Shown here one piece after another: positions 1 to 20,090 of a DNA stretch of 24,000 nt. The notes beneath the pieces were generated by a model that was not told where the DNA came from, searched no databases, and saw only the letters and a program-made list of their open reading frames with translations. The stretch comes from Halobaculum roseum (GTDB lineage Archaea; Halobacteriota; Halobacteria; Halobacteriales; Haloferacaceae), in assembly GCF_019880245.1 (NCBI RefSeq), contig NZ_CP082286.1:676521-700520 (forward strand), written 5' to 3'. The translations under genes were made by a program, and so were the position numbers. Each line of letters starts with the position of its first letter. The stretch's first letter is position 1.

Positions 1-587
1 GTGAAACCCTAAGACGAACCGATAATCTGCCACTGGTGTTTACTCCGTACGTTGACTCCCCCAAGAAGCAAGATACACTGGATATCACCTACGTCAAAGA
101 TGACGAGAAGGGTGTGGACGGAGGCTGAGCGTCCTCAAACATGCCGGAGTATATAGTTTGACATAAATTCTACAATAAATGACGATTCCTCGTTCATGCA
201 TTCTTCCGACGACTGTTATCCCAGTTATGAAGAGCAAGCAGACGAAGAACAGACTTCTGATGCACCCATCATACATTAAGCACAAAACGTGAGCGGGAAC
301 TGGACTTCGCACTCGCGATTTTTCCTCCCGCCCATTAACCGGGGTGAAACATGGAGATGTTGTCCGGATACACGTGATGAATGTTCCAGTTGATCACACA
401 TCGATACAGTTCGAACGTCGCTACCGTAACGGTCATTAATAATTTCACTCCGTGAGTGAGAAGTACTGATCGGGAGGTGCAGTAAAACAATGAGATCTGG
501 CTTTGTCTACCGGGTTACTATAGCACGTTAGATATATATGAGTGTGGTTCTGACCAAGATAACAAGTTAGTCTAGCATCTTTATAAA

Positions 588-2432
588 ATGAATTTCTTAT
601 TACAAACGGCAACAATCGTCCAGAGATCATGGGAGCGTCTACTGTTACTGCTAGGGGAAATATTCCTTATTGCATCAATTCTGTCAATCAGACATTCTAT
701 TGCCAACGAGTATATGTTATCAGTATACCAAGAAGCATCTTCACATTCAATTGGGCTGTTGGTGGCGGCCTCATTCATTTTTATTACGGTGATGTTTCTT
801 TCTGAATCTAAATTCAGCCGTTATTTATCTGCAGCATCATTGTCTTTAGTAACAATCTGTATAGTCAGCTTTCCAATTATAATGGGATACAACTTTATGG
901 GGGTGGGTGATCCACTCACCCATCTAGGATACACTAGGGATATAATCGCCGGGGTTCCTGATCTAATACCGAGTTATCTATTATATCCAGGGTTGCACAT
1001 ATTTGCAGCTACCATACACTTTATTATTGGATCACAATTGGAACACACTTTTTTATTAATCCCAATCCTATTCATAGTCTGTTTTATAGTTCATGTTGTT
1101 GTCTTAATTAGAGCAATTACTAATAGACGTGAAGTGATAGTTATAGCAGTTTTCTCAAGCTCTTTACTATTGCCAGTCAATAACTTCGGGATCCATCTTC
1201 TATCACAACCTGGGAGTGTAGCTGTGTGGTTTTCGCCTGTTTTACTGTATGCTTTGGTTAAGTATGTCAGTACTCCGGAAGTGAGATTTAAAATGATGTT
1301 CATAATTGCTTATACCGCACTTGTCTTAATTCATCCAAGACAGGCACTTTACGTATTAGTTTTCTATATTCCGTTTATAATCTCAGTCCAATATATAAAC
1401 AAACAAAAATCTAGTAGCTTATTGCCGTCTATGAGCCTGCATAACATGGTAGGAGATATATTAACGATATTGATTATTTGGTTGTCGTGGAATATTCACA
1501 CCCGTACATTCATAACTCAGGGGGCGTCAAGGCTCATCGAGCTTGTTTATATTTCCGATGTGGAAGGTGCTAATAAAATATCGGGTGCCGCTACATCACT
1601 GGATAATTACGGATCTAGTATTTTTGAGTTGTTTCTCAAACTGTTCTTTGTAGACCTGTTATTTGTTTTGGCATCAACTGCCTTGATGCTATTAACGGTT
1701 AGGAGATTTTACCTAGAACATATGAGATCCAAAACCAACACATTAAGTCCAAGAGAAATAATTGTGATAGGATTTATCCCCGGATTGGGTGGTATAACCT
1801 TGCTATTTTTGATCTACTTAATGCTAAGTCCGGGAGCCTACTTTCGAATTCAAGGATTTGCTATGGTACTTGTAACAATAATTGGAACCTTAGCGATCCA
1901 TACGATATGGGAAGGGACTAACCTACAAGTCGATAAAAGGAACATGAGAATAATAGTCGTGGGCGTACTGATATTTATGTATCTCTTATCTATTCCGATT
2001 ATGCATTCATCACCATATATATACAAATCAAATCAAAAAGTTTCAGAATCCTCGATCACAGGACATGAGTTTTCATTCACAAATAGCAATGACGACATAC
2101 AATTTGTCGGGGATGCACCTCCGGACCGCTATCGAAATGCAATATTCGGCACAATAAAGAGTAGCCGGGGACTGGGCGTTGCTAAAAATATCCAGGTTAT
2201 CGACTACGAGTATAATAGAGGTAGAGTACCATTCCATTTTGCAAACCAATCTTTGAATTCCCATTACAATAGTGAAAGATATCTAACAATCCAAGAGAGA
2301 GAAATAAAAAAGAATACGCAGTTATACGAAGGATCGGGGTACTCGAAGAGTGACTACAAATACCTTAATAATAACAGGAAGATTGATAAAATATATGATA
2401 ATCGCGGATTTAGGCTCTATATAGTAGAATAA
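588..2432 (+). CDS. Polytopic integral membrane protein (many TM segments plus a ~150-aa hydrophilic C-terminal domain); candidate glycan polymerase or GT-C-like transferase of the adjacent sugar cluster
   Basis: 614-aa ATG ORF, by far the longest in its region. It has repeated 18-25 aa hydrophobic stretches (LLLLLGEIFLIASILSI, VAASFIFITVMFL, FIVCFIVHVVVLI, FVDLLFVLASTALMLL, IIVVGVLIFMYLLSIPI) followed by a polar tail. No family-diagnostic motif was recognised by eye, so the function is inferred from context only. Confidence 0.75.
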   Translation: MNFLLQTATIVQRSWERLLLLLGEIFLIASILSIRHSIANEYMLSVYQEASSHSIGLLVAASFIFITVMFLSESKFSRYLSAASLSLVTICIVSFPIIMGYNFMGVGDPLTHLGYTRDIIAGVPDLIPSYLLYPGLHIFAATIHFIIGSQLEHTFLLIPILFIVCFIVHVVVLIRAITNRREVIVIAVFSSSLLLPVNNFGIHLLSQPGSVAVWFSPVLLYALVKYVSTPEVRFKMMFIIAYTALVLIHPRQALYVLVFYIPFIISVQYINKQKSSSLLPSMSLHNMVGDILTILIIWLSWNIHTRTFITQGASRLIELVYISDVEGANKISGAATSLDNYGSSIFELFLKLFFVDLLFVLASTALMLLTVRRFYLEHMRSKTNTLSPREIIVIGFIPGLGGITLLFLIYLMLSPGAYFRIQGFAMVLVTIIGTLAIHTIWEGTNLQVDKRNMRIIVVGVLIFMYLLSIPIMHSSPYIYKSNQKVSESSITGHEFSFTNSNDDIQFVGDAPPDRYRNAIFGTIKSSRGLGVAKNIQVIDYEYNRGRVPFHFANQSLNSHYNSERYLTIQEREIKKNTQLYEGSGYSKSDYKYLNNNRKIDKIYDNRGFRLYIVE

Positions 2433-2863: not shown

Positions 2864-4057
2864 ATGGGCCAGTTAGTTTTTTCTGATGTAGATGGAGTCC
2901 TCACAAATTCGAAAATTAATATTGGCGACGATGGTGAGGCTTTCAAAACATTCGATGTGAAAGACGGATATAAAATCACACAATGGCTTGAACAAGACGG
3001 TTGCGACTTCGTAATTATTACTTCAAGGGAGTCTCAAGCTGTCACAAATCGAGCCTCCGAATTGGGAGTGGATGAAGTTCACCAAGGCGTGAATGATAAA
3101 AAAGAAAAAGTTAAATCAATCGCGTCTCGCCTCGGGTTCAGTCTGGAGAGCACAGTTTATATTGGCGATGATCTGACGGACGTAGACGCGATAGAAACTG
3201 TCGGAACGGGTTGTTGTCCTGCCGACGCAGTTCAGGAAGTCAAAAAGAAGTGTTCATACGTCAGCCGGTATGATGGTGGAAACGGAGCCGTTCGGAATAT
3301 TTTGAATTACATAATGGAAGTGTCTCAAACGACGGTTGGCATTATTCCAGCTCGTTATGGATCAACAAGACTCCCTGGTAAACCATTAATCGAAATCGCT
3401 GGTAAACCTATGATTCAGCACGTCTACGAGCGTGCGAACAACGCTGCGTCGCTCGACGACCTCATCGTCGCAACAGATGATGAACGTATTATTGAGGCAG
3501 TCGAGTCTATTGGCGGCTCTGTGATGATGACAGACCCTGATCATTTAACTGGAACAGATCGGGTGGCAGAGGTCGCAGCGAACGTCAAAGCTGACTTCAC
3601 AATCAATATCCAAGGCGACGAACCACTAATCGATCCGGTTGTCATCGACGATATTGTGATGGCGCTTCAAGATAACTCTCCGAAAGTCGCAACGCCAATT
3701 TCCCCGATCAAAGACGAATCGCTCCTTGAGGATGAGAACACGGTTAAGGTGGTAACCGATAATGATGGTAAAGCACTCTACTTTTCACGGTCGAAAATAC
3801 CGTCCGGCGGGGAAACAGGCACAACATATAAGCACATTGGATTATATGGTTACGAAACAGGAATGTTACTTGACTACATCGATATGGAGTCAGATCTTGA
3901 ATCAGCTGAAGACTTAGAACAGCTTCGACTACTCGAAAACGGATACGAGATACAGACCGTGGAGACCGGCTACGACTCAAAAGAGGTCAACGTTGAAAGC
4001 GATATACCTGTAGTGGAGAAACAACTACAGCAAGAACATAAAAATGAAAATCAGTGA
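2864..4057 (+). CDS. kdsB: Bifunctional Kdo-8-phosphate phosphatase (KdsC, HAD) / CMP-Kdo synthetase (KdsB, 3-deoxy-manno-octulosonate cytidylyltransferase) fusion
   Basis: The N-terminal ~150 aa carry HAD/KdsC motifs (FSDVDGVLTNSKI, FKTFDVKDGYKI, IITSRES, YIGDDLTDVDA, GGNGAVRNIL). The C-terminal ~240 aa align by eye along the whole length of E. coli KdsB (GIIPARYGSTRLPGKPL, GKPMIQHVYERA, VATDDERI, GTDRVAEV, NIQGDEPLIDP, LYFSRSKIP, HIGLYGY, LEQLRLLENGY). Confidence 0.93.
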   Translation: MGQLVFSDVDGVLTNSKINIGDDGEAFKTFDVKDGYKITQWLEQDGCDFVIITSRESQAVTNRASELGVDEVHQGVNDKKEKVKSIASRLGFSLESTVYIGDDLTDVDAIETVGTGCCPADAVQEVKKKCSYVSRYDGGNGAVRNILNYIMEVSQTTVGIIPARYGSTRLPGKPLIEIAGKPMIQHVYERANNAASLDDLIVATDDERIIEAVESIGGSVMMTDPDHLTGTDRVAEVAANVKADFTINIQGDEPLIDPVVIDDIVMALQDNSPKVATPISPIKDESLLEDENTVKVVTDNDGKALYFSRSKIPSGGETGTTYKHIGLYGYETGMLLDYIDMESDLESAEDLEQLRLLENGYEIQTVETGYDSKEVNVESDIPVVEKQLQQEHKNENQ

Positions 4058-4862
4058 TAATTTCATAGCCTCGAATGAGGGTTCGTTCTTCCTAATCGCA
4101 GGGCCATGTGTAATCGAATCAGAAGAACAGGTAATGGAAACAGCGCATAAACTGAGCAAAATCACGGACCGTCACGAAATTGACTTGATATTCAAGAGCT
4201 CGTTTGATAAAGCAAACCGGTCATCAATCAGTTCCTACCGCGGCCCTGGAATGGAACGAGGGCTGGAAATCCTTCAGCAGGTTAAAGATGAGTACGATCT
4301 TCCGGTAATAACAGATTTTCACGTTCCTGAACAAGCTGCACGGGTCGCAGAAGTGGTTGACGTTCTCCAAGTGCCTGCGTTCCTCTCACGACAAACCGAT
4401 ATGCTTACTGCTGCCGGAAAAACAGGTCTGCCGATCCATGTAAAAAAAGGGCAGTTCCTCTCAGCGGACGGAATGGATAATGTCATCAACAAAATAGAAT
4501 CCACAGGGAATGAACAGATCATGCTCTGTGAACGCGGTGAGATGTTCGGATACAACAATCTCGTCGTGGATATGCGGAATCTAGACATCATGAAAGAACT
4601 CGACAAGCCGGTCGTTTTTGATACGACACATTCGGTACAACGTCCGGGCGCACGCGGTGACTCCAGCGGCGGCGACCGTCGGTTTGCACCGACATTGGCT
4701 CGAGCAGCACTCAGTGCGGGAGTAGCAGGTATTTTCGCGGAGGTACATCCGAATCCACCGTCAGCGAAATGTGACGCCGCTACTCAGCTTCCCCTCAATG
4801 AATTTGAATCGCTTGTCAATCAGTGGAAAGCGATTGATGAAACGGTTAAAAATGGCAAGTAA
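4044..4862 (+). CDS. kdsA: 2-dehydro-3-deoxyphosphooctonate aldolase (Kdo-8-phosphate synthase), Cys-type (metal-dependent class)
   Basis: Near full-length by-eye alignment to KdsA: LIAGPCVIES, FKSSFDKANRSSISSYRGPG, ITDFHVPEQA, VDVLQVPAFLSRQTD, HVKKGQFLS, CERG..FGYNNLVVDMRNL, VFDTTHSVQRPG, SGGDRRF, GIFAEVHPNP..AKCDAATQLPL. The ATG overlaps the kdsC-kdsB stop by 14 nt. Confidence 0.95.
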   Translation: MKISDNFIASNEGSFFLIAGPCVIESEEQVMETAHKLSKITDRHEIDLIFKSSFDKANRSSISSYRGPGMERGLEILQQVKDEYDLPVITDFHVPEQAARVAEVVDVLQVPAFLSRQTDMLTAAGKTGLPIHVKKGQFLSADGMDNVINKIESTGNEQIMLCERGEMFGYNNLVVDMRNLDIMKELDKPVVFDTTHSVQRPGARGDSSGGDRRFAPTLARAALSAGVAGIFAEVHPNPPSAKCDAATQLPLNEFESLVNQWKAIDETVKNGK

Positions 4863-5844
4863 GGAGCAACAAGCAGGGGACGATGAGATTAGAGATGCTA
4901 TCTCCAAGGCCATTTTCGAGCAATCTAAATCTATCAAGACCCTCAACAATAAGGGAACAATTGAGCAGATCTGCCGTGTTGCCCTTGAAATAGACGATAC
5001 CGATGGTCGAATCGCTTTCTCAGGAATCGGTAAGTCCGGCGATGTCGGCAAGAAGATCGTTGACACATTCAACAGTATCGGAGTGACTTCACATTTCGTC
5101 CATCCTGTTGAGGCACTTCACGGGGATATTGGAGCGCTATCCTCGGGGGATGTGATGATACTTATCTCGAACAGCGGCAATACCGAAGAAATGGTGGAAT
5201 TATTAAAGTTTTCCGAGTATTTCGGGCCAACGACAGTTTCCATCACGTCTAATCCGGATTCTGAACTTGCACAACAATCAGAGTTCCATATCAATACAAA
5301 AGTGAGTAACGAAGGAGCCGTAGTTGACCTTGTTCCGATGGCAAGTGCCACAGTCACGATGGTTATTGGGGATTGTCTCGCAAATGCGCTGATGACGATG
5401 CAAGACTTCGACAAAACCCAGTATGGGCACTTCCATCCTAGCGGTACGATTGGCAAGCGGCTTTTATTAAATGTGAGTGACCTACTTTATAAAGATATTC
5501 CACGAACAAAGCCATCTGACACGCTAGGTAAAGCCATCGTTCACATGAGTGAGGGTGAGAAGGGGATCGCGGTCATTCGTGATGACCAAGATCTCGTCCA
5601 GGGAATTTTAACAGATGGAGATATACGACGTCTTGTTGAGTCTGGAACTGATTTTAACGGTGTGACCGCAGAGGAAGTCATGACCACTGACCCAGTTGCT
5701 GTATCACGTGATGATTCCGCTATCAAAGCCTTAGAAACTATCGAGAAACATGACATTACACAGGCTCTCGTTACAACCGACGAAGGGAGATTTGAGGGAG
5801 TAATACATTTACATGATATAATGGACGAAGGGCTATCTAACTAG
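4852..5844 (+). CDS. kdsD: Arabinose-5-phosphate isomerase (KdsD/KpsF type: SIS domain + tandem CBS)
   Basis: SIS motifs are present (FSGIGKSGDVGKKI, FVHPVEALHGDIG, ISNSGNTEE, GHFHPSGTIGKRLL), followed by two CBS repeats (GILTDGDIRR, GVIHLHDI). The listed ORF starts at 4771, but the ATG at 4852 (MASKEQQ...) overlaps the kdsA stop (aATGgcaagTAA), and homology begins after it, so 4852 is preferred. Confidence 0.92.
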   Translation: MASKEQQAGDDEIRDAISKAIFEQSKSIKTLNNKGTIEQICRVALEIDDTDGRIAFSGIGKSGDVGKKIVDTFNSIGVTSHFVHPVEALHGDIGALSSGDVMILISNSGNTEEMVELLKFSEYFGPTTVSITSNPDSELAQQSEFHINTKVSNEGAVVDLVPMASATVTMVIGDCLANALMTMQDFDKTQYGHFHPSGTIGKRLLLNVSDLLYKDIPRTKPSDTLGKAIVHMSEGEKGIAVIRDDQDLVQGILTDGDIRRLVESGTDFNGVTAEEVMTTDPVAVSRDDSAIKALETIEKHDITQALVTTDEGRFEGVIHLHDIMDEGLSN

Positions 5845-6026
5845 CTATTCCTATTAAATATTATAGTGATGGTTTATTCGACAAATCTTAAATATGCTGT
5901 GTTGGTTACCAAATTCGTGATAGGCTTGTGATTGTCGCTACGACTCTTTAACCGGTATGCGATATCTTCACCCGAGGCCTTTTATTGAACACAACATTTA
6001 TATATTAAACTTTACTTGATACAGCC

Positions 6027-6899
6027 ATGAGCAAATTTGAGCGTTTTATTCAAATTACAAGAGAAGAAGGTTTTTTTGAAGCACTAAACCGGGGCTTAAT
6101 ATTTGGTGCTAATCAGTTGCCTGGATGCATTTGGTCACCATTCATTATTTATTCATTATATAAAGATGGTAGAGAGATTCAAGACATAAAGTATTTGTTA
6201 GATAATAGCAGGGATCGGCATGATGCCTTAGTAGGTCCGAATCTATTATATTCTTATTCATCGTATCCAGGATTACGGACTCGAGCCCTGCATTACTATA
6301 GATACGTGTTAGCTACCAACTTACTCATCGGGACAGAACCGGACAGAGTTTTAGACATTGCTGCTGGAGTAAGCTATGGAACTCATATTTTGAAAGCAAA
6401 ATTAAATAGCGATTTTGAGTATATAGCAGGCGATATCTCAGCAGATGCGCTCGTCTACGGTCAAAAATATTATTCACCGGAGAGTAGCGTCCAAGCAGAC
6501 GCCCATCACTTACCACTTGATGGCGATTCAACAGACATAGTCCTATCTTTTGAGACAATGGAACACATTCCAAACGTAGACAAATATTTGACAGAGTTGA
6601 ATCGGATTGTTCGCCCCAATGGCGAGTTATTTATTAGCGTTCCAAATGATGAAGATATAGATTCAAAAGGAGATCACGACGTTAAAAAGTATCCGCATGT
6701 ACACGTGTTTGATTATGAAAAATTTCGAAATAAACTAAACAGCCATTTTCCCGAAAGGTCCCTGACCATATATGCACAAGAGCGGCCTGAGAGAGTGATA
6801 AGGCCGGGAGAGATTCTAGATTTACCTCCTGGATTTATAGAATTAGATGGTGAATGTGAAATTACAGAGCAAACAACCCTACTAGCACACGTCAACTAG
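6027..6899 (+). CDS. Class I SAM-dependent methyltransferase with a ~100-aa N-terminal extension of unknown function
   Basis: Motif I is RVLDIAAGVSYGTHIL, post-I is YIAGDISADAL, motif II is DIVLSFETMEHIPN, and motif III is LNRIVRPNGELFISVPN. Confidence 0.85.
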   Translation: MSKFERFIQITREEGFFEALNRGLIFGANQLPGCIWSPFIIYSLYKDGREIQDIKYLLDNSRDRHDALVGPNLLYSYSSYPGLRTRALHYYRYVLATNLLIGTEPDRVLDIAAGVSYGTHILKAKLNSDFEYIAGDISADALVYGQKYYSPESSVQADAHHLPLDGDSTDIVLSFETMEHIPNVDKYLTELNRIVRPNGELFISVPNDEDIDSKGDHDVKKYPHVHVFDYEKFRNKLNSHFPERSLTIYAQERPERVIRPGEILDLPPGFIELDGECEITEQTTLLAHVN

Positions 6900-7029
6900 G
6901 TCGAAGATCCTACCAAAATTACCTCTACCTCCCATATCAGCCGCGTGGTAGGGTCTCCGCAAAAATATAACCCCATCTACTAGTGACGATGGGTTGTTGT
7001 GCGGTTGTTCGAAAGCTAAAGAAGTAGTG

Positions 7030-7262
7030 CGAGCTGGATGGGTTCGATACAAAGAAAAATCACATCGTAAAGGTTCGGTTGTATACACCGATGTTGGCAC
7101 TGCTAGTAAGTCATTAGATGCTGGCGGTAGTGACGGAATATGCCGATGACCAGGCCAAAGCGCTAGGACCTTCCAGTCGCCGACCAAGCTCATCCCTACT
7201 ATCTGGATGAGTTCCCCGGCTACTCGCCACTGCCGCTGTTGGAGAACCTCATCAAGATATAG
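7030..7262 (+). pseudogene. Decayed C-terminal remnant of an IS1595-family-like transposase
   Basis: Two frames separated by stops and frameshifts read ...HRKGSVVYTDVGTASKSL... and ...ADQAHPYYLDEFPGYSPL...*. These resemble the conserved (G)xxVxTD and YLDEFxFR blocks of the IS1595 DDE C-terminus. There is no intact ORF. The 134-aa minus-strand ORF over this region looks non-coding. Confidence 0.35.
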
Positions 7263-7516
7263 AAATCCAAAGCCAACTGCCGACACTACAGGAAACCCTC
7301 AGTACCGCTACACAACCAGGGTTGGACTTTAATTAGAACGTACGACCTAAAGAATATCTGTCGATGCTGTCACCAACCGGTTTCGGTCGGTACCAGCGTT
7401 CGCATCGACTTCTGCAAGGGTAGCGTTCCGACATCCATGTGATACCCCGATGTTGGATACCAGGTTTTAGAACTTCAATAGAAAGAAATAGGTCTCTCTA
7501 ATATATTCCTATCAAC

Positions 7517-8851
7517 ATGAACTCCGTTGTGTTTTTAAGTGTAGACTGTCTTCGTGCTGACCATCTCGGCTGCTATAATTACGAGAGGCCGACTTCACCA
7601 AACATAGATGATTTCGCTAACTCCGCGACTATCTACAAGCATGGGTATGCAAACTGTCCAGGAACTCGATGGGCTTTCCAATCCCTCCACACGGGTGTTT
7701 ATACGCATCAAATTGATGGACTAGGAATCCCGGATAGGTATACACCGTTAGCAGCCCTTTTTTCGAACGCAGAATACGCAACTGGCGGATTCGCGGTGAA
7801 CGCTTTCGTGAGCCGGGAGTACAATTACAATAGGGGATTCGATACTTTCTACAGTGTTTCAGAAGCCACAGGCACGAAGCCGATCATCAAGCGTATCGGT
7901 AAGAAAATTAGTGATAAAGTAGACAACGAGCGGTTGGATGAGTGTGTTCTTAAACCGGTCAATAATATTCTCCGAAACCAGTCAACAGGAGATTCAAACG
8001 AATATAAACCGAGTCATACGGATAAAGATTCGGTTGATCAGGCACTTCATTTTATCGAACAACAACAAACTGCCGACAATGAGTTCTTCTGTTGGGTCCA
8101 TTTTATGGACGCCCATACCCCGTACGGCTACTGGCCAAAACATCTCGAAGCAATCCGGGGAAATAGCTCTATTGAGCACACAATTCAACCCGGCGAGGAA
8201 GGCAAAATTGCCGTCGGCGAAAATCCCCCAAAAGACGTAATCGATACCTACGATGCCTGTATCAGGAGTGTTGATGAACAAATTGGACGGGTCCTATCTG
8301 CAATCGACGAAAACACGACAGTGATACTGACCGGTGACCACGGCGAGGAGTTCGGTCAATACAACGACTTCCACAGTGCCTCGCTATACAGCAGCATGAC
8401 GCAAGTGCCAATCATCGTCCGCACCCCGTCAATTCCAACCGGTATCGTTGAGACCCCCGTCCAGCATTTAGATTTACCACCGACAATGTTAACAGCAGCG
8501 GGGATTTCAGTTCCAGATCACTTCGAAGGCGTGTCCCTCCAGACAATCAACCGTACCTCTACTGACCCGATTTTCTTCTCGTTGGGCAAAAATCAAATCG
8601 CCGTCCGGAAAGGGATCTATAAGTATATCGAGGAAAACGGCTCAACGGAACTCTATCGCGTTCCCCACTCGGGACAAGAAACCGACTCCGTACTCAACGA
8701 GAATAAGGAAATCGCCGAAAAATTACAGAAGCTTATTGAGGACCACCGACAGAGGCAGAGTATCGGCGAAGGCAAATTAGAATTGTCTAAGGGGCAAGAT
8801 GATCTCTCCGACGAGATTGAAAAGAACCTTGAAGACCTAGGCTACCTATGA
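7517..8851 (+). CDS. Sulfatase-fold (alkaline-phosphatase superfamily) hydrolase/transferase with a divergent active-site motif
   Basis: N-terminal VVFLSVDCLRADHLG (metal-binding Asp region), NCPGTRWAFQSLHTG at the position of the C/S-x-P-x-R signature, HFMDAHTPY, and TGDHGEEFG (GDHG block). Confidence 0.88.
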   Translation: MNSVVFLSVDCLRADHLGCYNYERPTSPNIDDFANSATIYKHGYANCPGTRWAFQSLHTGVYTHQIDGLGIPDRYTPLAALFSNAEYATGGFAVNAFVSREYNYNRGFDTFYSVSEATGTKPIIKRIGKKISDKVDNERLDECVLKPVNNILRNQSTGDSNEYKPSHTDKDSVDQALHFIEQQQTADNEFFCWVHFMDAHTPYGYWPKHLEAIRGNSSIEHTIQPGEEGKIAVGENPPKDVIDTYDACIRSVDEQIGRVLSAIDENTTVILTGDHGEEFGQYNDFHSASLYSSMTQVPIIVRTPSIPTGIVETPVQHLDLPPTMLTAAGISVPDHFEGVSLQTINRTSTDPIFFSLGKNQIAVRKGIYKYIEENGSTELYRVPHSGQETDSVLNENKEIAEKLQKLIEDHRQRQSIGEGKLELSKGQDDLSDEIEKNLEDLGYL

Positions 8852-9039: not shown

Positions 9040-10056
9040 ATGTTAGATTGGGAAGACCAAACTGTCCTAGTGACGGGCGGAGCCGGGTTTATCGGTTGCT
9101 TTCTTACGGAGAAGCTTCTCGGCCGCGACGCTAATGTAGTCATAGCGGATAACTTCTCACGTGGCGACTTCAACAAAATATCTCATCTCGAAGACGAAAT
9201 CGAGATTCGTCCCGTCGATTTGACGACACACAAAGGCTGTGTCGAAGCTACCGAAGGGGTTGATCAAGTTTTCCATCTTGCCGCTTCAGTAGGTGGAATC
9301 CACTATATTCAGCGAGAGAATGTCCATGGTCTTACTCCATCGGTGCTCATGAACCAGCACATGCTGGAAGCCGCGAGGATTAACCATATTGAGAGCTTTA
9401 TGTTCGCCTCCTCTGCTTGTGTCTACCGGCAACAACATGACGGTCTGAATCGGTTTTCTGAGGAGCAAGCTATTCCAGCCAATCCTCACAGTACATACGG
9501 TTGGGCGAAGATTCTCGGTGAGGTCGCTTGTGATGCATATCACACAGACACAAGTGTCGATACTGGCGCTGTCCGTATCTTCAACTGTTACGGTCCACGC
9601 GAGAGCCTTAACCCTGACAGTAGCCATGTTATTCCCTCTCTGTGTCGTAAGGCTATCGAGGCCGAAGACGGGGATAGCATCGAGCTCTTCGGTGACGGCA
9701 GTCAAGAACGCGGGTTCATCTACGTTACCGACTTGGCTGAAGGCATGATTAGAGCGATGGAAGAGAAAACCGATGGCGAACCCATTAATCTCGGAAATGG
9801 CGACGAAGTCGTCTCTATCAATGAACTCGCAGAAACAATTGTTGATATCAGTGGTAAGGACCTCGAAATCGAACACGACCTCTCGAAGCCTACAGGGACA
9901 GACAAATATGCTATCGACGATACGAAAATGAAAAACGAACTCAATTGGGAACCAAGTATATCGCTCAAAGAAGGGCTCGAAAATGTATATGAGTGGGCAG
10001 AGTCTGAGCTCGAAGGAGCTAAGCAGAAAGCAGTCGCAAACGGAGGAAACCAATGA
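9040..10056 (+). CDS. NAD-dependent sugar-nucleotide epimerase/dehydratase (extended SDR), paralogue 1
   Basis: Rossmann motif VLVTGGAGFIG; catalytic SSACVY ... YGWAK (S...YxxxK); RIFNCYGPRE; 338 aa. Confidence 0.92.
   Translation: MLDWEDQTVLVTGGAGFIGCFLTEKLLGRDANVVIADNFSRGDFNKISHLEDEIEIRPVDLTTHKGCVEATEGVDQVFHLAASVGGIHYIQRENVHGLTPSVLMNQHMLEAARINHIESFMFASSACVYRQQHDGLNRFSEEQAIPANPHSTYGWAKILGEVACDAYHTDTSVDTGAVRIFNCYGPRESLNPDSSHVIPSLCRKAIEAEDGDSIELFGDGSQERGFIYVTDLAEGMIRAMEEKTDGEPINLGNGDEVVSINELAETIVDISGKDLEIEHDLSKPTGTDKYAIDDTKMKNELNWEPSISLKEGLENVYEWAESELEGAKQKAVANGGNQ
9136..9150 (+). repeat. In-gene copy of the exact 15-nt direct repeat GTAGTCATAGCGGAT (encodes VVIAD of epimerase 1)
   Basis: Identical to 8950-8964, 186 nt upstream. 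Confidence 0.8.
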
Positions 10057-11069
10057 GCTGGGACGGTGAACGCGTTCTCGTTACAGGCGGTGCCTCATTC
10101 ATTGGATCGCACTTAGTTGAAGATCTCGTCGCGGAAGGGGCGAACGTCCGTGTCGCGGATGACTTTTCTAGTGGAGAAACTGGAAACATCGAAGCTGTCG
10201 AGGACGAGATCGAAATCCTTCGTGGAAATCTAAAACACTGGGACTTCGCGGACGAGGCGACCGAAGACATAGATACGGTCTTCCATCTCGCAGCCGACCA
10301 CGGCGGGCGGGGATACATCTCTCAGTACCCCGCGAACTGCGCCACGAACATGGCGCTGGACAACATCGTCTACGAGGCCGCCGCGAAGAACGGAGTCGAC
10401 CGAATCAGTTTCGCCTCCAGCGCCTGTACGTATCCGACTGACATCCAGCAGGAGCGCCAGCGCCTCAGCGAGGACATGGTGAGCTTCGAGGAACGTGGAG
10501 GCGCCTACGCTGACGAGGTGTACGGCTGGGCGAAGCTCATGGGTGAACGCTCGCTCCAGGCGTACAACGAACAGTATGACATCGATACCAGCGCCGTTCG
10601 GATCTTCACGGCGTACGGCCCGCGTGAAAACGAAACCCACGCGATCGTCGCGTTCATGGCGAAAGCCTACGCCGGACAGGATCCTTTCCAGATCTGGGGT
10701 GACGGCGAGCAGACGCGGAACTTCACCTACGTGAAGGACATCACGCGCGCACTTCGCCTCGCCGCCGAGAATATCACTGACGGCACCCCGGTCAACGCCG
10801 GTATCAGTCGGTACGTGACGATGAACGAGGCCGTCGAGATCATCTTCGACTATCTCGACTGGGAGCCGGACGAGATCAACTACATGACGGACAAGCCGGT
10901 CGGGGTTCGCCATCGTGCGGCCGACACCACCCGTGCTGAGGAACTCCTCGGGTGGGAACCCGTGTACACCGTCGAGGAAGGGATCAAGAACACACTCGAT
11001 TGGTACGTCGAGAATCGCGACAAGGAGTACGTTCGGGAGAACCTCGAAACACTCCTCCACGAGCGCTAA
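10053..11069 (+). CDS. NAD-dependent sugar-nucleotide epimerase/dehydratase (extended SDR), paralogue 2
   Basis: VLVTGGASFIGSHLV, SSACTY ... YGWAKLMGE, RIFTAYGPRE. It is also 338 aa and roughly one-third identical to paralogue 1 by eye. It overlaps the upstream gene by ATGA. Confidence 0.92.
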   Translation: MSWDGERVLVTGGASFIGSHLVEDLVAEGANVRVADDFSSGETGNIEAVEDEIEILRGNLKHWDFADEATEDIDTVFHLAADHGGRGYISQYPANCATNMALDNIVYEAAAKNGVDRISFASSACTYPTDIQQERQRLSEDMVSFEERGGAYADEVYGWAKLMGERSLQAYNEQYDIDTSAVRIFTAYGPRENETHAIVAFMAKAYAGQDPFQIWGDGEQTRNFTYVKDITRALRLAAENITDGTPVNAGISRYVTMNEAVEIIFDYLDWEPDEINYMTDKPVGVRHRAADTTRAEELLGWEPVYTVEEGIKNTLDWYVENRDKEYVRENLETLLHER

Positions 11070-11090: not shown

Positions 11091-12329
11091 ATGGCTGACG
11101 CAAACAAAGAATACGTACTCGTCACGGAGTATTTCCACCCGGACACGGCCTCGACCGGCCAGCTCATGACTGACCTCGCTGTCGGACTCCGAGAGCGGGG
11201 TCTGGATATGACCGTCCTCACCGGCCAGCCGAACTATCACAGCGGCGAGAACGAGAAGCAACCTCGCGTGTCCACGCATGGAGGGGTCCGGGTGAAGCGC
11301 ATTCGGGCACCCCAGGTTCGACAGTCCTCGATTCCACGGCGTCTGTTCAACTGGGGGATCTTCACCGTCTGGATGTTCGTTGTGATGCTCCTGAGCCGGA
11401 CCGAGAAGGAGCGCGAGGTGATCTTCGTCTCCAACCCTCCCTTCCTCCCTGTTGCGATGTGGCTCGTCTGTCGGATTCGTGGGTGGGACTACACCTATAT
11501 CGTCTATGACCTCTACCCCGACCAGCCAGTCGAACTCGACTACATTCCCGAAGGGAGTATTCCTCACCGGATCTGGGATTTCTTCAATCGCCGTTCCTTC
11601 CTCGCGGCGAACCACATCGTCGCGCTCGGCCCGGTGATGAAGAATCGCATCAGCCGGAACGCCGGCCCGAAGTTCGACGAGAGCAAGGTCGAAATCATCC
11701 ACAACTGGGAGGACGAGGACTTCATTCGACCCAAAGAGAAAGCGGAGAACTGGTTCAGCGAGGAACATGGCCTCGTCGACCAATTTACGATCCTCTACTC
11801 GGGGAACATCGGGGACTTCCACGACCTCGAAACCCTGGTTGAAGCTGCGGCGGAGTTCGAGAACGAGAACGTGGGCGTTCTCATCATCGGGGAGGGAGAT
11901 AACAAGTCAAACATCGTCTCGCTGGCCGAAGAACTCGGCATCAGAGGAGAGACGGTCGAGTTTCTCCCATACCAGCCGTGGGACGACCTCCCCTACAGCC
12001 TCACATCAGCGGACGTCTCCGTCGTTACGGTCAAGGAAGGGTTCGAGGGCATCTGTGTCTCCAGCAAACTCTACACCGCGATGGCCGCAGGCGACCCCGT
12101 GCTTACCATCGCTCAACCGGACGACGACGAGTCTCGAATCGTCGATCAGTTCGACGCCGGGATCCATGTGTCACAGGGGGACGTGGAAGGGATCGTTGAA
12201 GCCATCGAGCGTTGGCGATCGAAGCCGGAACTCGTCGAGGAACAAGGCGCCAATGCCCGGGAAGCGTTCGAAGAGAACTTCACCGCCGACGAGTCGATCG
12301 ACCACTACTATCGGATGCTGGCGGAGTAA
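11091..12329 (+). CDS. GT-B glycosyltransferase, family 4 (WbuB/WcaI-like)
   Basis: The N-terminus VLVTEYFHPDTASTGQLMTDLAVGLRERG...TGQPNY is typical of WcaI/WbuB-type GT4. The C-terminal half has the GT1-domain pattern (ILYSGNIG, GEGDNK, FLPYQP, VVTVKEG..G..VSSKLYTAMAAG.PVL). Confidence 0.88.
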   Translation: MADANKEYVLVTEYFHPDTASTGQLMTDLAVGLRERGLDMTVLTGQPNYHSGENEKQPRVSTHGGVRVKRIRAPQVRQSSIPRRLFNWGIFTVWMFVVMLLSRTEKEREVIFVSNPPFLPVAMWLVCRIRGWDYTYIVYDLYPDQPVELDYIPEGSIPHRIWDFFNRRSFLAANHIVALGPVMKNRISRNAGPKFDESKVEIIHNWEDEDFIRPKEKAENWFSEEHGLVDQFTILYSGNIGDFHDLETLVEAAAEFENENVGVLIIGEGDNKSNIVSLAEELGIRGETVEFLPYQPWDDLPYSLTSADVSVVTVKEGFEGICVSSKLYTAMAAGDPVLTIAQPDDDESRIVDQFDAGIHVSQGDVEGIVEAIERWRSKPELVEEQGANAREAFEENFTADESIDHYYRMLAE

Positions 12330-13043: not shown

Positions 13044-13169
13044 AGGGTGGAGTCCGGTGGCAGACTCTTTGGTATAGACCGACAACCATCGAACAATCGG
13101 GACCTATATGAGCAGAAGTTATATCATTGAATCGCTCTCGACTTCGGATTCCTATCGATCAGAGTCACC

Positions 13170-13406
13170 TCACTCTTCCCGGGGATCGGTGACGAACCGG
13201 TACAGTCCCCGATTCACCTTCTCAACCCATCCCGCATCAACGAGTCCCCGCAACGATCGGTTGATGTATTGTCGGCGAATGTCTAATTGCTCCTCCATCC
13301 GTTTCGGGTTCGCATAGCCCCATGGACGTCCCTCTTCTCGTCCGTCTTTGAGAATATCGAGAATCGCCTCCTGGCGGTTATCGGGCTTGAACCCCTCGTT
13401 GACCAT
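13170..13406 (-). CDS. Small winged-helix DNA-binding protein (PhiH1-repressor-like / MarR-like wHTH)
   Basis: 78 aa. The pattern RQEAILDIL...YANPKRMEEQLDIRRQYINRSLRGLVDAGWVEKVNRGLYRFVTDP shows a recognition helix plus wing, typical of small haloarchaeal proviral or plasmid regulators. Confidence 0.8.
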   Translation of the reverse strand: MVNEGFKPDNRQEAILDILKDGREEGRPWGYANPKRMEEQLDIRRQYINRSLRGLVDAGWVEKVNRGLYRFVTDPREE

Positions 13407-13520
13407 AGTACCACGAGAAGAATCCCGGAGCCATTTACAGATTCGGGGATAGCACTCGGCTAGTTCTTTTAGAAGTTACAAAGTAACAGTTAAGCGAAGG
13501 TGAGGTTAACTGCAGTACGA

Positions 13521-13582
13521 GAAGCGCGGGATCCCGACTCAGAAGTGGGGTCGGTGCTGGAGACACCGGATCCCCGCGCTTC
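13521..13582. repeat. Imperfect inverted repeat / nested hairpin upstream of the LAGLIDADG gene
   Basis: GAAGCGCGGGATCC (13521-13534) pairs with GGATCCCCGCGCTTC (13568-13582; one extra C). An inner pair CCGAC/GTCGG lies in the intervening sequence. Confidence 0.6.
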
Positions 13583-13675
13583 GCCACCACGACGAAGCAT
13601 GACGAACACGGAGAGAACGCGGCAAGAACCCATCGAACAGATTTCCGACTACCACCAGCGACAGGGGAGGGTGAC

Positions 13676-14653
13676 ATGATGCGCTACGAGTGGCTCGATG
13701 AAAGCATAGACGAGCTCGCCGAGCGCTACGATGCTGGCCAGTCACTCCGAGAGATCGCAGACGAGTTCGGCGTCTCGACACCGACGATCCACAACCGGTT
13801 GAAGGACCACGACGTGTCGATGCGAAACGGCGGTCCGGAGTACGTCCGCTTGGAACACAGAACCGACGAACTCGTCGCCCAATACGTCGACCACGACCGC
13901 TCCGCCCAAGCGATCGCCGACGACTACAACACCTCTCGTGCGGCGATCCGGTATCACCTCGAACAGGCGGGTGTCGACTACACGCCACCCGCTTCGAAGA
14001 CGGCGGACCTCGATTTCAACCCGTATCAGGTCTCGCTCATTCAGGGCGAACTCCTCGGTGATGGGTGCCTCCACCGTCGAACGGACGAGGGGTGCTTCTT
14101 CCAGCTCTCGACGACAACGGAGTCACATGCGGTGCGACTTATCGAGAACCTTCCCGAGAGCCTCTTTCCGGACGGCCAGCCAAACAAGTTCACCCGGGAG
14201 AATCACTTCAACGGGGAGGACTACACGATGTGGACGGTCACGTCACGTCCTCAGTCGCGCTTCGAGCAGCTGTACGAGGATTGGTACGAAGTTCGGGAGG
14301 AGAACAACCGGAAGGTCGTCCCGGAGGCGTTCACTCTCGACAGGACCGCGCTCCTCCATTGGTATTGGGGCGACGGGAGTTGTTCGATTCGTGACCGCGG
14401 AGCACCCCGAGTCAGTTTCGCAACACACGGGTTCCCGGAGGCCTCCGTCGAACACCTCCGATCCGAACTGGATCGCCTGGGCTACGACAACTACGCCGTG
14501 GAACAGACGCACGTCGAGGACGGCTCCGGCCTGTTCATTCGCCTCCGAGACTACGACGCGCGCTCATTTCTGGAGGACTTCCGCCGGTTCAGTTCGCTCC
14601 CCGAGTACGACCACAAGTTCCCGGTTCCGATACGGGAGGACGAGTCCGTGTAG
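13676..14653 (+). CDS. Free-standing double-motif LAGLIDADG homing-endonuclease-like protein with two N-terminal HTH modules
   Basis: Two LAGLIDADG-type motifs are present, IQGELLGDGCL and LLHWYWGDGSCS, about 100 aa apart. The N-terminus has two sigma-70-region-4-like HTHs (GQSLREIADEFGVSTPTIHNRLKDH; RSAQAIADDYNTSRAAIRYHLEQAG). Confidence 0.85.
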   Translation: MMRYEWLDESIDELAERYDAGQSLREIADEFGVSTPTIHNRLKDHDVSMRNGGPEYVRLEHRTDELVAQYVDHDRSAQAIADDYNTSRAAIRYHLEQAGVDYTPPASKTADLDFNPYQVSLIQGELLGDGCLHRRTDEGCFFQLSTTTESHAVRLIENLPESLFPDGQPNKFTRENHFNGEDYTMWTVTSRPQSRFEQLYEDWYEVREENNRKVVPEAFTLDRTALLHWYWGDGSCSIRDRGAPRVSFATHGFPEASVEHLRSELDRLGYDNYAVEQTHVEDGSGLFIRLRDYDARSFLEDFRRFSSLPEYDHKFPVPIREDESV

Positions 14654-14693: not shown

Positions 14694-15212
14694 ATCACCT
14701 ACGCCCACCAGCGCGACCAGAACGGGCTCGCACACGCCCTCCTCACCGTCGAGGAGCACATCGACGACGACTTCATGCTCATCCTCGGCGACAACGTCTT
14801 CGAGGCGAACCTCCAGGACGTGGTTCGCCGACAGGCCGAGGACCGAGCGGACGCCGCGTTCCTCGTCGAGGAGGTCCCGATCGAAGACGCCTCACGCTAC
14901 GGCGTCTGTGACACCAACAAGTACGGCGAGATCGTCGACGTGGTCGAGAAGCCCGATGACCCGCCTTCCAACCTCGTGATGACCGGCTTCTACACCTTCA
15001 CCCCCGCCATCTTCCACGCCTGCCACCTGGTGCAGCCCAGCGACCGCGGGGAGTACGAGATCAGCGACGCGGTCGGATTGCTCCTAGAGAGCGGCCGGAC
15101 GATCGACGCGATCCCGCTGGACGGCTGGCGGCTGGACATCGGGTACCCCGAGGACCGCGACGAGGCAGAGCGTCGCCTGAGCGACGAGGTGGAGCCGGAA
15201 GCCGAAGCCTGA
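14694..15212 (+). pseudogene. 5'-truncated sugar-phosphate nucleotidyltransferase (RmlA/GalU-like); N-terminal ~75 aa including the GxGTRLxPxT loop are missing
   Basis: The frame is open from the stop at 14679 and reads ITYAHQRDQNGLAHALLTVEEHIDDDFMLILGDNVF...VEKPDDPPSNLVMTGFYTF...GEYEISDAV...DGWRLDIGYPEDR. This matches the central and C-terminal parts of the NTP_transferase fold. No N-terminal nucleotide-binding loop is present, and the only ATG is internal (14775). Confidence 0.8.
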
Positions 15213-15444
15213 GCGGTCACACGGCGGCAACACGGGACGGAGAGATTGCACGAGCGACCACAGGGGGGCGAGGACCCGAACCGACGCGAGCGCGCTCTCG
15301 GAGCCCTGACGGCTGGTGAGAGCCCACGCACACCCACACTTGTTTGGACGGGTACCTGTGGGTGCGTCTCGAAGACCGGTAGTCTGTGGATCAACTGGAG
15401 ACGTGTTCGGTGTACCACCAGGTGTCAGCGGGCGAGCTTCCCCA

Positions 15445-16538: not shown

Positions 16539-16680
16539 GTCATTCTCTTACATCTATCGCCACATATCTTCATAGTTCAGAAATGTGGTCTACAGGCTGA
16601 GCAGGCCCAGTGCCTCGGGGCTTGACCCCGAAGCGGTTCACCGAGAGAGAATTAAGTGAGTTAGTGCCAAACGAGTATCT

Positions 16681-17108: not shown

Positions 17109-17218
17109 CAACTAACATCCGACGGGCTGTATCGAACATCACACAGCTACCAGCTCTCACTGTCCTGCTCGTGGGTGGCGGCATCATCTAAGTCTGTACT
17201 CAAACATGTATTACCTGC

Positions 17219-19500: not shown

Positions 19501-19523
19501 GAAGAAGCCGCGTATCGGTGAGT

Positions 19524-20081: not shown

Positions 20082-20090
20082 GATCGCTTA

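Follow-up and report, generated by a model that had tools for sequence, protein, structure and literature searches.

A predicted CMP-Kdo biosynthesis cassette of bacterial ancestry in Halobaculum roseum and other haloarchaea

Kdo is a signature sugar of lipopolysaccharide (LPS) in the outer membrane and of capsules of Gram-negative bacteria, and of RG-II in the plant cell wall. Bacteria make its activated form, CMP-Kdo, for the LPS inner core with four enzyme families: KdsD, KdsA, KdsC and KdsB. To our knowledge, legionaminic acid is the sole ulosonic acid shown so far in a haloarchaeal N-glycan. Its bacterial-type pathway is encoded in Halorubrum sp. PV6 (PMC6137143), and the glycan is reported to be established by experiment. 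Halanaerobiales carry kdsABCD in an LPS cluster (PMC5007114), and in CapsuleFinder (2017) no capsule system of the ABC-dependent type was reported for archaea (PMC5542703). We found no report of archaeal Kdo in the literature searched, which included a 2024 review of N-glycosylation in archaea; this agrees with the statement of a first-pass annotation of this DNA that no archaeal Kdo glycoconjugate has been characterised.

Here we analyse a locus of the haloarchaeon Halobaculum roseum (a genome that the first-pass annotation had rightly called haloarchaeal in type) that encodes the four enzyme families of the bacterial LPS pathway. Unlike the bacterial system, it resides in a host without an outer membrane, and no Pfam or NCBIfam match to lpx genes or WaaA (GT30) was found among the window proteins and the inspected upstream genes. 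The locus resembles the PV6 legionaminic acid pathway in specifying a bacterial-type, CMP-activated ulosonic acid within a haloarchaeal surface-glycan cluster. It differs in that the predicted sugar has eight rather than nine carbons and would be built from arabinose-5-phosphate by a KdsA of the DAHP_synth_1 family instead of by NeuB-type enzymes; moreover, the PV6 glycan was established by experiment, whereas Kdo is predicted here from genes. The pathway is canonical, but in a new domain, and its genes are already auto-annotated in databases, yet unstudied. We consider it probable that the locus is a functional CMP-Kdo cassette of bacterial ancestry, long resident and mobile in Halobacteria, inside a variable low-GC surface-glycan island.

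Gene layout

The cassette comprises three consecutive genes on the plus strand, at positions 2864–5844 of the window (the whole stretch of DNA analysed, 24,000 nucleotides) (Table 1). Their overlapping ends had been described correctly in the first-pass annotation; the order that it listed (KdsD, KdsA, KdsC/B) was wrong, as the 5′ to 3′ order is kdsC::kdsB fusion, kdsA and kdsD/kpsF. The overlaps measure 14 nucleotides between kdsCB and kdsA (4044–4057) and 11 nucleotides between kdsA and kdsD (4852–4862), and all three open reading frames are intact and translationally coupled. Although the kdsD frame is open from a GTG codon at 4771, a start at ATG 4852 is favoured by the public annotation and by homologues, whose alignments begin there with residue 1.

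Table 1 Features of the Kdo locus in the H. roseum window
Feature	Position	Strand	Length (aa)	Domains and remarks
Polytopic membrane protein	588–2432	+	614	Candidate GT-C fold (STT3/PglB/AftA-like); Foldseek on predicted model
kdsC::kdsB fusion	2864–4057	+	397	N-terminal HAD-IIIA Kdo-8-P phosphatase domain; C-terminal CMP-Kdo synthetase domain
kdsA, Kdo-8-phosphate synthase	4044–4862	+	272	
kdsD/kpsF, arabinose-5-phosphate isomerase	4852–5844	+	330	SIS and two CBS
Class I SAM-dependent methyltransferase	6027–6899	+	290	Pfam Methyltransf_11/23/25/31
Soluble sulfatase-fold protein (alkaline-phosphatase superfamily)	7517–8851	+	444	Pfam Sulfatase, 143 bits
SDR1, extended short-chain dehydrogenase/epimerase	9040–10056	+	338	Pfam Epimerase, 168 bits
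SDR2, SDR1 paralogue (40% identity)	10053–11069	+		Native-like composition, GC3 0.75
GT4-family WcaI-like glycosyltransferase	11091–12329	+	412	Pfam Glycos_transf_1, Glyco_trans_4_4

Predicted CMP-Kdo pathway

The four activities that had been proposed for these genes all score above curated NCBIfam cut-offs; Pfam agrees, the nearest structures are KDO8P synthase, CMP-Kdo synthetase and KdsC, and every Kds motif quoted earlier is present in the translations. KdsA passes two equivalog models (NF003543, 404 bits versus a cut-off of 242; TIGR01362, 394 bits versus 314), whereas its best score against DAHP synthase models is 145 bits, under the cut-off of 335. The 40 best PDB matches are exclusively KDO8P synthases (223–290 bits), with DAHP synthases at 107 bits or less, and on this split in both models and structures we rejected KdsA as a DAHP synthase. 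The protein carries the Cys-type GPC motif of the metal-dependent class, and its GPC22VIES, FDTTHSVQ, FAEVHPNP and AKCDAATQ motifs align to the same residues of solved KDO8P synthases. The active-site and metal-site residues of this class, as defined in the A. aeolicus enzyme, are the Cys of GPC, the His of THSVQ, the Glu of E-x-HP and the Asp of K-x-D.

In the fusion protein (Pfam Hydrolase_3 and CTP_transf_3), the KdsC domain spans approximately residues 3–153 and the CMP-Kdo synthetase domain approximately residues 156–391. The KdsB domain passes NF003952 (287 bits versus 193) and TIGR00466 (189 bits versus 155), its best 13 PDB matches are without exception CMP-Kdo synthetases, and its PARYxSxRxPGKPL (P-loop-like) and QGDEPL motifs are invariant across 14 aligned sequences. 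The KdsC domain exceeds TIGR01670 (130 bits versus 107) and falls below the E. coli-type equivalog NF007019 (125 bits versus 208); the model of the related KDN-9-P phosphatase scores lower (102 bits versus 180). Searched for the HAD motifs DxDGV, T/S, K and GDxxxD, the domain shows SDVDGVLT, ITSR and GDDLTD. The best PDB matches of the fusion are the CMP-Kdo synthetase 1GQ9 (187 bits), which we take to be the capsule-specific enzyme KpsU, and KdsC 3N07 (100 bits). Full-length haloarchaeal relatives share 52–81% identity. A KdsC–KdsB fusion with the same domain order occurs in Aliivibrio fischeri ES114 (35% identity over residues 3–363), flanked there by kdsA and kdsD in the order A-CB-D as opposed to the haloarchaeal CB-A-D; the fusions of Pseudomonas and Halomonas (425–428 amino acids) instead have the reverse order, KdsB–KdsC.

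KdsD, with SIS and two CBS stretches in Pfam, belongs to the KpsF/GutQ subfamily (TIGR00393, 254 bits versus 204) and scores under the enterobacterial equivalogs KdsD (231 bits versus 505) and GutQ (210 bits versus 481). KdsC and KdsD therefore pass subfamily rather than equivalog cut-offs, whereas KdsA and KdsB pass equivalog ones. The locus encodes the enzymes for CMP-Kdo, with their catalysis predicted from sequence: KdsD would isomerise ribulose-5-phosphate to arabinose-5-phosphate, which the Cys/metal-type KdsA would condense with PEP to give Kdo-8-phosphate; the KdsC domain would dephosphorylate this to Kdo, and the fused KdsB domain would convert Kdo and CTP to CMP-Kdo.

Distribution and ancestry

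The kdsCB–kdsA–kdsD cassette recurs in the same order at no fewer than nine other haloarchaeal loci in six genera, with hosts that include Halopenitus, Halobaculum magnesiiphilum, four Halorubrum species, Halomicrobium, Haloferax chudinovii and two metagenomic contigs. Haloarchaeal-type homologues form around 70–80 clusters at 90% identity. In a neighbour-joining tree, haloarchaeal KdsA sequences make up one deep clade (98.5% bootstrap), separate from bacterial proteins; sampling was limited and the bacterial sister group is not settled by this tree. By identity, the nearest bacterial KdsA proteins come from a Lysobacterales metagenome-assembled genome (MAG; 60.6%) and from Halanaerobium (59.5%), and the best bacterial match of the KdsB domain is from Natroniella (55%), which makes the Halanaerobiales the source of the closest named bacterial homologues. 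Natroniella and related MAGs have operons of the order kdsB–kdsA–kdsD–kdsC, a B-A-D arrangement that these Halanaerobiales and diderm Bacillota operons share with the haloarchaeal cassette; unlike them, the cassette has kdsC at its 5′ end, fused to kdsB. Sequence comparison indicates that the haloarchaeal order is the bacterial order with kdsC moved and fused, and that the cassette is of bacterial ancestry.

Against other haloarchaeal copies, dN/dS is 0.03–0.12 for the kds genes (0.03–0.07 for kdsA) and dS is saturated; the import is therefore old and the genes have been maintained. Together with the deep KdsA clade and the acidity of KdsCB and KdsD, these values bear out the earlier reading that the genes were not freshly imported. 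The acid-rich composition attributed to all three proteins applies to two of them: KdsCB (pI 4.3) and KdsD (pI 4.6) are acid-shifted relative to bacterial Kds proteins, but the pI of KdsA (5.15) is not below that of its Halanaerobium homologue (5.05).

A low-GC surface-glycan island

The cassette lies within an island of low GC content (46% versus 57–63%), at least 18 kb long, that ends between SDR1 and SDR2. All of the neighbours named in the first-pass annotation—a GT4, two SDRs, a methyltransferase and a sulfatase-fold protein—are present; however, because the island stops between the two SDRs, SDR2 and the GT4 gene (GC3 0.77) belong to a different compositional block from the cassette. SDR1, the final gene of the island (GC3 0.50), has GDP-mannose 3,5-epimerase as its best PDB match (185 bits) and overlaps SDR2 by 4 nucleotides. 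The GT4 protein scores 129 bits against the NCBIfam WcaI subfamily, below the cut-off of 276.

Homologues of the methyltransferase (36–64% identity) are found in three further Kdo loci (L084, where the gene is directly 3′ of kdsD, L090 and L093). A methyltransferase follows kdsD in H. roseum and Hrr. xinjiangense and is present in half of the ten Kdo loci; the H. roseum protein is a recurrent companion of the cassette and a candidate glycan methylase. The sulfatase-fold protein has distant relatives (23–26% identity) in loci L086, L088, L093 and L094.

Upstream, glycosyltransferases and a Wzx-like flippase are encoded within 11 kb, the flippase gene just outside the window; fragments of IS1595 and IS240 lie between these glycan genes, and a truncated NTP_transferase gene neighbours the cassette. 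No aglB gene is in view in the window plus 11 kb upstream. Flanking genes encode the haloarchaea-specific families HVO_2833_C, HVO_A0114 and DUF7342. The island is a variable locus for surface glycans, which haloarchaea exchange with one another.

Candidate Kdo transferases and export

Comparison with the group 2 capsule system of E. coli (kps: KpsF, KpsU, KpsC, KpsS and KpsMT) extends beyond the subfamily of KdsD and the 1GQ9 match of the KdsB domain. Seven of the ten Kdo loci with enough context encode a PF05159 (Capsule_synth, KpsC/KpsS-like) protein above the Pfam gathering score, and we propose these proteins as candidate β-Kdo transferases on the basis of their sequences. For one of them, the alignment to the KpsC structure 6MGD brings the QxxxD and HP motifs into register, and five haloarchaeal members share an invariant K-x-HP; all are far from KpsS (46 bits versus a cut-off of 600). 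At L093, the PF05159 gene ends, with overlap, a five-gene run that starts with kdsCB. An ABC exporter is encoded at five of the ten loci but, unlike KpsM/KpsT, is a fused MsbA/HepA/PglK-type half-transporter. At three loci, kdsD is translationally coupled to a pyruvyl-transferase-like gene, and in Hfx. chudinovii aglB lies 7.6 kb from the cassette.

H. roseum departs from this pattern. Neither KpsM/KpsT nor another ABC exporter is encoded in the window, Pfam finds no PF05159 among the window proteins, and tblastn with five haloarchaeal PF05159 proteins gave no match in the window plus 11 kb upstream. Over the stretch from 11 kb before to 18 kb after the cassette, PF05159 and PS_pyruv_trans-like genes are both absent, which makes this the sole locus of the ten with neither in view.

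We infer both the Kdo glycoconjugate itself and, from gene context, the steps downstream of CMP-Kdo. A cytoplasmic glycosyltransferase would add Kdo from CMP-Kdo to a lipid-linked glycan, the KpsC/KpsS-like protein being the candidate in most related haloarchaeal loci. In H. roseum, the Wzx-like protein would flip this glycan, and the GT-C-fold protein (588–2432) or AglB could then transfer or polymerise it outside the cell, onto the S-layer glycoprotein, archaellins or exopolysaccharide, possibly with methylation by the adjacent methyltransferase. More broadly, we lean slightly towards the view that cassette-bearing haloarchaea display Kdo on an S-layer or archaellin N- or O-glycan or on a lipid-anchored, capsule-like polymer, with KpsC/KpsS-like β-Kdo transferases and two interchangeable export routes (either an ABC exporter or Wzx together with a new GT-C enzyme specific to haloarchaea), and that a single acquisition of the cassette from halophilic diderm bacteria was followed by its shuffling between genera as a module that varies the cell surface, for instance to evade viruses.

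If so, Archaea would gain their first known Kdo glycoconjugate and their first Kps-like chemistry. With a CMP-Kdo cassette that is maintained and widely shared in Halobacteria, the known archaeal sugars would come to include an eight-carbon ulosonic acid, and KpsC/KpsS-type chemistry would reach organisms without an outer membrane. The cassette is also a clear case of bacterial genes for surface glycans that were domesticated and then traded between archaeal genera in a hypervariable island; such trade is relevant to halovirus receptor diversity and cell–cell recognition. Because the cassette recurs in many haloarchaea, the presence of a Kdo-containing surface glycan, never reported in archaea, can be tested directly: H. 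roseum, Haloferax chudinovii and several Halorubrum species are in culture, and Haloferax and Halorubrum are genetically tractable.

With no transferase in view and insertion-sequence scars upstream, the H. roseum cassette could be an orphan that still makes CMP-Kdo after its transferase was lost through insertion-sequence-mediated rearrangement of the island, leaving the strain with no Kdo glycoconjugate. The truncated NTP_transferase gene points the same way, but we think this unlikely, as all three kds genes retain intact frames, conserved catalytic motifs and low dN/dS, the inspected stretch is around 30 kb of a 3-Mb genome, and two uncharacterised GT4-type transferases are nearby. Somewhat more doubtful is a product other than Kdo, either another octulosonic acid or a derivative (methylated or otherwise modified Kdo, Ko or 8-substituted Kdo). 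The recurrent methyltransferase, the coupled pyruvyl-transferase-like gene and the subfamily-level scores of KdsC and KdsD would fit such a sugar; by contrast, KdsA and KdsB pass the cut-offs of the canonical enzymes, the C5 substrate is set by the arabinose-5-phosphate isomerase that the operon encodes, and modification is as likely after transfer as on the free sugar. That kdsA encodes a DAHP synthase for aromatic amino acids, or that bacterial DNA has contaminated the assembly here, is very improbable: the DAHP_synth_1 domain is common to KdsA and type I-beta DAHP synthases and the GC content is lower than is typical of haloarchaea, but the model scores and PDB matches separate the two enzymes, H. 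roseum contigs (0.5 and 2.98 Mb) encode an identical protein, the flanks carry haloarchaea-specific families, and the cassette is found at nine other haloarchaeal loci.

A candidate GT-C-fold family of haloarchaea

The membrane protein upstream of the cassette belongs to a family with 17 homologues, all haloarchaeal or from hypersaline metagenomes and lacking a defining Pfam domain; Pfam and NCBIfam profiles gave no match to the H. roseum protein. Homologues adjoin the Kdo cassette in Halomicrobium (609 amino acids, E = 3 × 10−49) and Hrr. halophilum (595 amino acids). We assessed the assignment by fold similarity to STT3, PglB, AftA and Emb and by a conserved acidic residue in the first external loop. 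The AlphaFold2 model (pLDDT 74.5, pTM 0.75) retrieves only GT-C enzymes among its top 20 Foldseek matches in the PDB (best E = 1 × 10−5), at the TM scores of 0.35–0.44 (around 0.42 for the best match) of a medium-confidence model, and D108 is invariant in a G-x-x-D-x-L-T-H-L-G block. On this modelled fold, the protein is a candidate transferase or polymerase for a lipid-linked glycan, and its haloarchaea-only family, unannotated until now, may be a new archaeal type of such enzymes. Public annotation covers just the final 151 amino acids of the protein.

A CMP-Kdo cassette in Halobaculum roseum

Judged by its predicted proteins, the H. roseum locus encodes the canonical pathway to CMP-Kdo, in a domain of life that is new for it. 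It comprises a KdsC–KdsB fusion (KdsCB), KdsA and KdsD, the genes of which overlap by 14 nt (kdsCB/kdsA) and 11 nt (kdsA/kdsD). The positions, motifs and neighbouring genes described in the first-pass annotation were all recovered; the gene order that it gave (D, A, C/B) was wrong, the actual order from 5′ to 3′ being C::B, A, D. The start chosen for kdsD agrees with the public gene call, and the alignments of homologues begin there. The same KdsA protein (100% identical) is present on BAAABK010000015.1 (GCA_039520945.1, H. roseum) and on a 2.98-Mb contig.

Enzyme identity was judged against curated NCBIfam cut-offs, and each of the four activities originally proposed exceeded one: KdsA with NF003543 (404 bits, cut-off 242) and TIGR01362 (394 bits, cut-off 314), the KdsB domain with NF003952 (287 bits, cut-off 193) and TIGR00466 (189 bits, cut-off 155), the KdsC domain with TIGR01670 (130 bits, cut-off 107) and KdsD with the KpsF/GutQ model TIGR00393 (254 bits, cut-off 204). 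Pfam assignments agree. The models passed by KdsC and KdsD are subfamily models; the enterobacterial equivalog models were not reached. Among solved structures, the fusion protein best matches CMP-Kdo synthetases (top match 1GQ9, 187 bits) and KdsC phosphatases. KdsA does not belong with the DAHP synthases, an alternative raised at the outset, because the best such model, with a cut-off of 335 bits, gives a score of only 145; its best 40 structural matches are likewise all KDO8P synthases (223–290 bits), with DAHP synthases at ≤107 bits. It has the Cys of the GPC motif and the conserved His, Glu and Asp, a set that we take, from the A. aeolicus enzyme, to mark the metal-dependent class.

Full-text searches of open-access papers yielded no account of Kdo, or of kds genes, from archaea, and Kdo is absent from a 2024 review of archaeal N-glycosylation, in line with the initial statement that no Kdo-containing archaeal glycoconjugate is known to have been characterised. 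Across 159 archaeal genomes, the capsule systems that CapsuleFinder detected were all of the synthase or PGA type (PMC5542703). The kds genes themselves are conventional and already annotated automatically, the names KdsB and KdsA having been given to these haloarchaeal proteins by NCBI’s pipeline; a Kdo pathway in archaea is unreported, surprising to glycobiologists and immediately testable in cultured strains.

Features of the H. roseum window and of the compared haloarchaeal loci
Sequence	Feature	Positions	Strand	Details
Window	GT-C-like membrane protein	588-2432	+	614 aa, intact, many transmembrane helices
Window	KdsC-KdsB fusion	2864-4057	+	397 aa
Window	KdsA	4044-4862	+	272 aa
Window	KdsD	4852-5844	+	330 aa from ATG 4852; ORF open from 4771
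Window	Methyltransferase	6027-6899		
Window	SDR1	9040-10056		
Window	SDR2	10053-11069		
Window	LAGLIDADG/HTH endonuclease ORF	13676-14653		
Window	NTP_transferase gene	14694-15212		
Window	DUF7342 gene	15445-16538	-	
Window	DUF7342 gene	19518-20597	+	
Window	IS605-type TnpB gene	20648-21922	-	OrfB_IS605 and Cas12f1-like TNB
Window	UPF0175 antitoxin-like ORF	22132-22560		
Window	TnpB-like stretch	23877-23933		57 nt
L092 (upstream of window)	~300-aa family	3497-4429		
L083	~300-aa family	13086-14024		
L083	~300-aa family	16028-16855		
L086	~300-aa family	6591-7331		
L088	~300-aa family	17301-18197		
L090	~300-aa family	5434-6387		
L090	~300-aa family	15834-16847		
L093	~300-aa family	377-919		
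L082	MptE-like protein	14877-15806		
L093	MptE-like protein	17197-18123		

Distribution among haloarchaea

Full-length homologues of the fusion (52–81% identity) fall into about 70 clusters, with carriers that include Halopenitus persicus, Halobaculum magnesiiphilum, Halorubrum ezzemoulense, Hrr. halophilum, Hrr. terrestre, Hrr. xinjiangense, Halomicrobium sp. IBSBa, Natronosalvus and Haloferax chudinovii; in Halodesulfurarchaeum, KdsB is unfused. The spread of KdsA parallels that of the fusion. As to synteny, a check suggested in the first-pass annotation, kdsCB–kdsA–kdsD have the same order, with genes overlapping or abutting, in every further locus retrieved (at least nine: L082–L086, L088, L090, L091, L093 and L094; L087 and L089 duplicate L086 and L088). 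When 72,556 plasmids were searched with KdsA (tblastn), the cassette was found on no known haloarchaeal plasmid, and the matches were bacterial only, at <60% identity.

Ancestry and age of the cassette

In a neighbour-joining tree of KdsA (44 sequences, 200 bootstraps), all haloarchaeal sequences and two metagenomic sequences form one clade (98.5%), for which no bacterial sister is supported. By identity, the closest bacterial sequences come from a Lysobacterales MAG (60.6%) and from Halanaerobium (59.5%). Synonymous sites are saturated between haloarchaeal copies of the cassette and dN/dS is 0.03–0.12 where calculable; the cassette is therefore old and under purifying selection. The first-pass interpretation is supported as to enzymology, host and cassette age.

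Branching inside the clade departs from taxonomy, with H. roseum KdsA grouping with that of Hrr. halophilum. The kdsD gene of H. roseum is 74–78% identical to the copies of Hrr. xinjiangense (78%) and Hrr. halophilum, and ~60% identical to those of loci whose kdsA and kdsCB show 76–88% identity (L082–L091 compared). This mosaic kdsD and the non-taxonomic grouping indicate lateral exchange and recombination among haloarchaea, and the mosaic implies recombination inside the cassette as well.

A pattern search of genome contigs based on the haloarchaeal KdsCB alignment (NIQGDEPL, KSFDVKDG) gave matches that, among those listed, were all bacterial, and these loci fed the operon-order comparison and the KdsA tree. 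Natroniella sulfidigena (Halanaerobiales) provides the best bacterial match to the KdsB domain among those listed (55%). Natroniella and related Bacillota and Omnitrophota MAGs, which have the nearest bacterial operons, carry kdsB–kdsA–kdsD–kdsC as four separate genes (bacterial loci L002, L003, L004, L010 and L039); the haloarchaeal form is therefore their B–A–D core with kdsC relocated to its 5′ end as a fusion partner of kdsB. Pseudomonas and Halomonas have the reverse fusion, KdsB–KdsC, whereas that of haloarchaea is KdsC–KdsB; Aliivibrio fischeri (L025) shares the haloarchaeal domain order but has the arrangement kdsA–kdsC::kdsB–kdsD. These differing fusions argue for more than one origin of the fusion. 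As halophiles that have LPS and possess kdsABCD (PMC5007114), the Halanaerobiales are plausible donors.

Composition and edges of the glycan island

The cassette (46% GC) lies in a low-GC block (37–54%) that reaches 8 kb or more beyond the upstream end of the window and stops at about position 10,050, after which GC content is 55–63%; the cassette and its surroundings are low in GC in other haloarchaeal genomes too. The right edge of the block is the exact junction of SDR1 and SDR2, paralogues that overlap by 4 nt and share 40% identity, with a GC3 of 0.50 in SDR1 versus 0.75 in SDR2. For each of them the best-matching solved structure is GDP-mannose 3,5-epimerase, a hint of an L-sugar nucleotide. 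Scans for tRNA genes and repeats found neither a tRNA gene nor a long flanking repeat marking the island, and a scan for sigma-70 promoters, a model not applicable to archaea, gave fewer matches than shuffled sequence.

The acid-rich proteins had been read as halophile-adapted rather than freshly imported. Overall this view stands, given the saturated synonymous sites, the dN/dS values and the single KdsA clade, and KdsCB (pI 4.32) and KdsD (pI 4.60) match native haloarchaeal proteins in acidity and exceed the bacterial fusions (pI 4.8–6.0). The acidity of KdsA (pI 5.15 versus 5.05 in Halanaerobium KdsA) had to be dropped as a sign of halophilic adaptation.

The NTP_transferase gene of the window is without its first 72 codons, and the LAGLIDADG/HTH endonuclease ORF occupies the site of the 5′ part. 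In five other haloarchaeal genomes the Kdo island has an intact orthologue (78–85% identity) at its flank, suggesting a chromosomal hotspot of glycan-island replacement that these genomes share.

Candidate Kdo transferases and companion genes

Pfam and NCBIfam searches detected no known Kdo transferase family in the window. Sufficient context for a comparison was available at ten loci (the window, L082–L086, L088, L090, L093 and L094), seven of which encode a PF05159 (Capsule_synth, KpsC/KpsS family) protein above the Pfam gathering score. The Halomicrobium protein matches the KpsC structure 6MGD (E = 5.5e-5) in an alignment that pairs the QxxxD and HP motifs, and K-x-HP is invariant in five PF05159 proteins of Kdo loci. 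In the metagenomic locus L093, kdsCB, kdsA, kdsD, a pyruvyl-transferase-like gene and the PF05159 gene form one overlapping run. H. roseum alone among the ten lacks both a PF05159 gene and a PS_pyruv_trans-like one in the interval from −11 kb to +18 kb, and tblastn found no remnants of PF05159, ABC exporter or PS_pyruv_trans genes in the window or upstream; IS fragments lie upstream of the cassette. We infer, with good motivation, that cassette carriers may bear a Kdo-containing glycan: the KpsC/KpsS-like genes of sister loci strengthen this reading, and the missing transferase weakens it for H. roseum itself.

The PS_pyruv_trans-like gene (three of ten loci) was considered as an alternative Kdo transferase but not adopted as such, as it occurs together with PF05159 in L093. 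Weak matches to MptE-like proteins (PF01973, Maf-type) were seen in proteins of 308–309 aa in L082 and L093. Maf-type proteins are linked to nonulosonic acid transfer onto flagellins, and the L082 and L093 proteins could be alternative ulosonic-acid transferases.

An MsbA/HepA/PglK-like ABC exporter is encoded in five of the ten loci, and also in L091. A Wzx-like flippase is found in four and never alongside the exporter, so that the two look mutually exclusive among Kdo loci. The methyltransferase family of the window recurs in half of the loci and sulfatase-fold proteins in six, as does a ~300-aa family with weak similarity to the sulfatase/alkaline-phosphatase superfamily, often adjoining the PF05159 gene. 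The aglB gene of Hfx. chudinovii lies 7.6 kb from the cassette.

A GT-C-like protein beside the cassette

The membrane protein encoded ahead of the cassette has no Pfam or NCBIfam match, and the public annotation keeps only its last 151 aa. Its 17 full-length homologues are all haloarchaeal or hypersaline-metagenomic and define a haloarchaea-only family for which Pfam has no model; those of Halomicrobium and Hrr. halophilum adjoin the Kdo cassette. The top 20 PDB matches of an AlphaFold2 model (pLDDT 74.5, pTM 0.75) are all GT-C enzymes, including STT3, PglB, AglB, AftA, DPY19 and Emb (best E 1e-5, TM about 0.42), and the family has an invariant Asp in a conserved early loop. Among Kdo loci, the gene is restricted to those without an ABC exporter. 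Together with an upstream Wzx-like gene, this context suggests that in H. roseum, Hrr. halophilum and Halomicrobium the glycan would be flipped and then transferred or polymerised outside by the GT-C-like protein; the other loci would take an ABC-exporter route instead.

Other elements in the window

Each of the two DUF7342 genes adjoins a ~160-aa ORF of no assigned family; these ORFs are not recognizable as paralogues, with no similarity detectable by BLASTP. DUF7342 pairs of a like kind flank the Hrr. ezzemoulense locus (L091). The window also contains HVO_2833_C/HVO_A0114 regulators and the UPF0175 antitoxin-like ORF. At its right end, a short stretch with 74% identity to part of the TnpB gene is probably a second TnpB copy that crosses the window edge.
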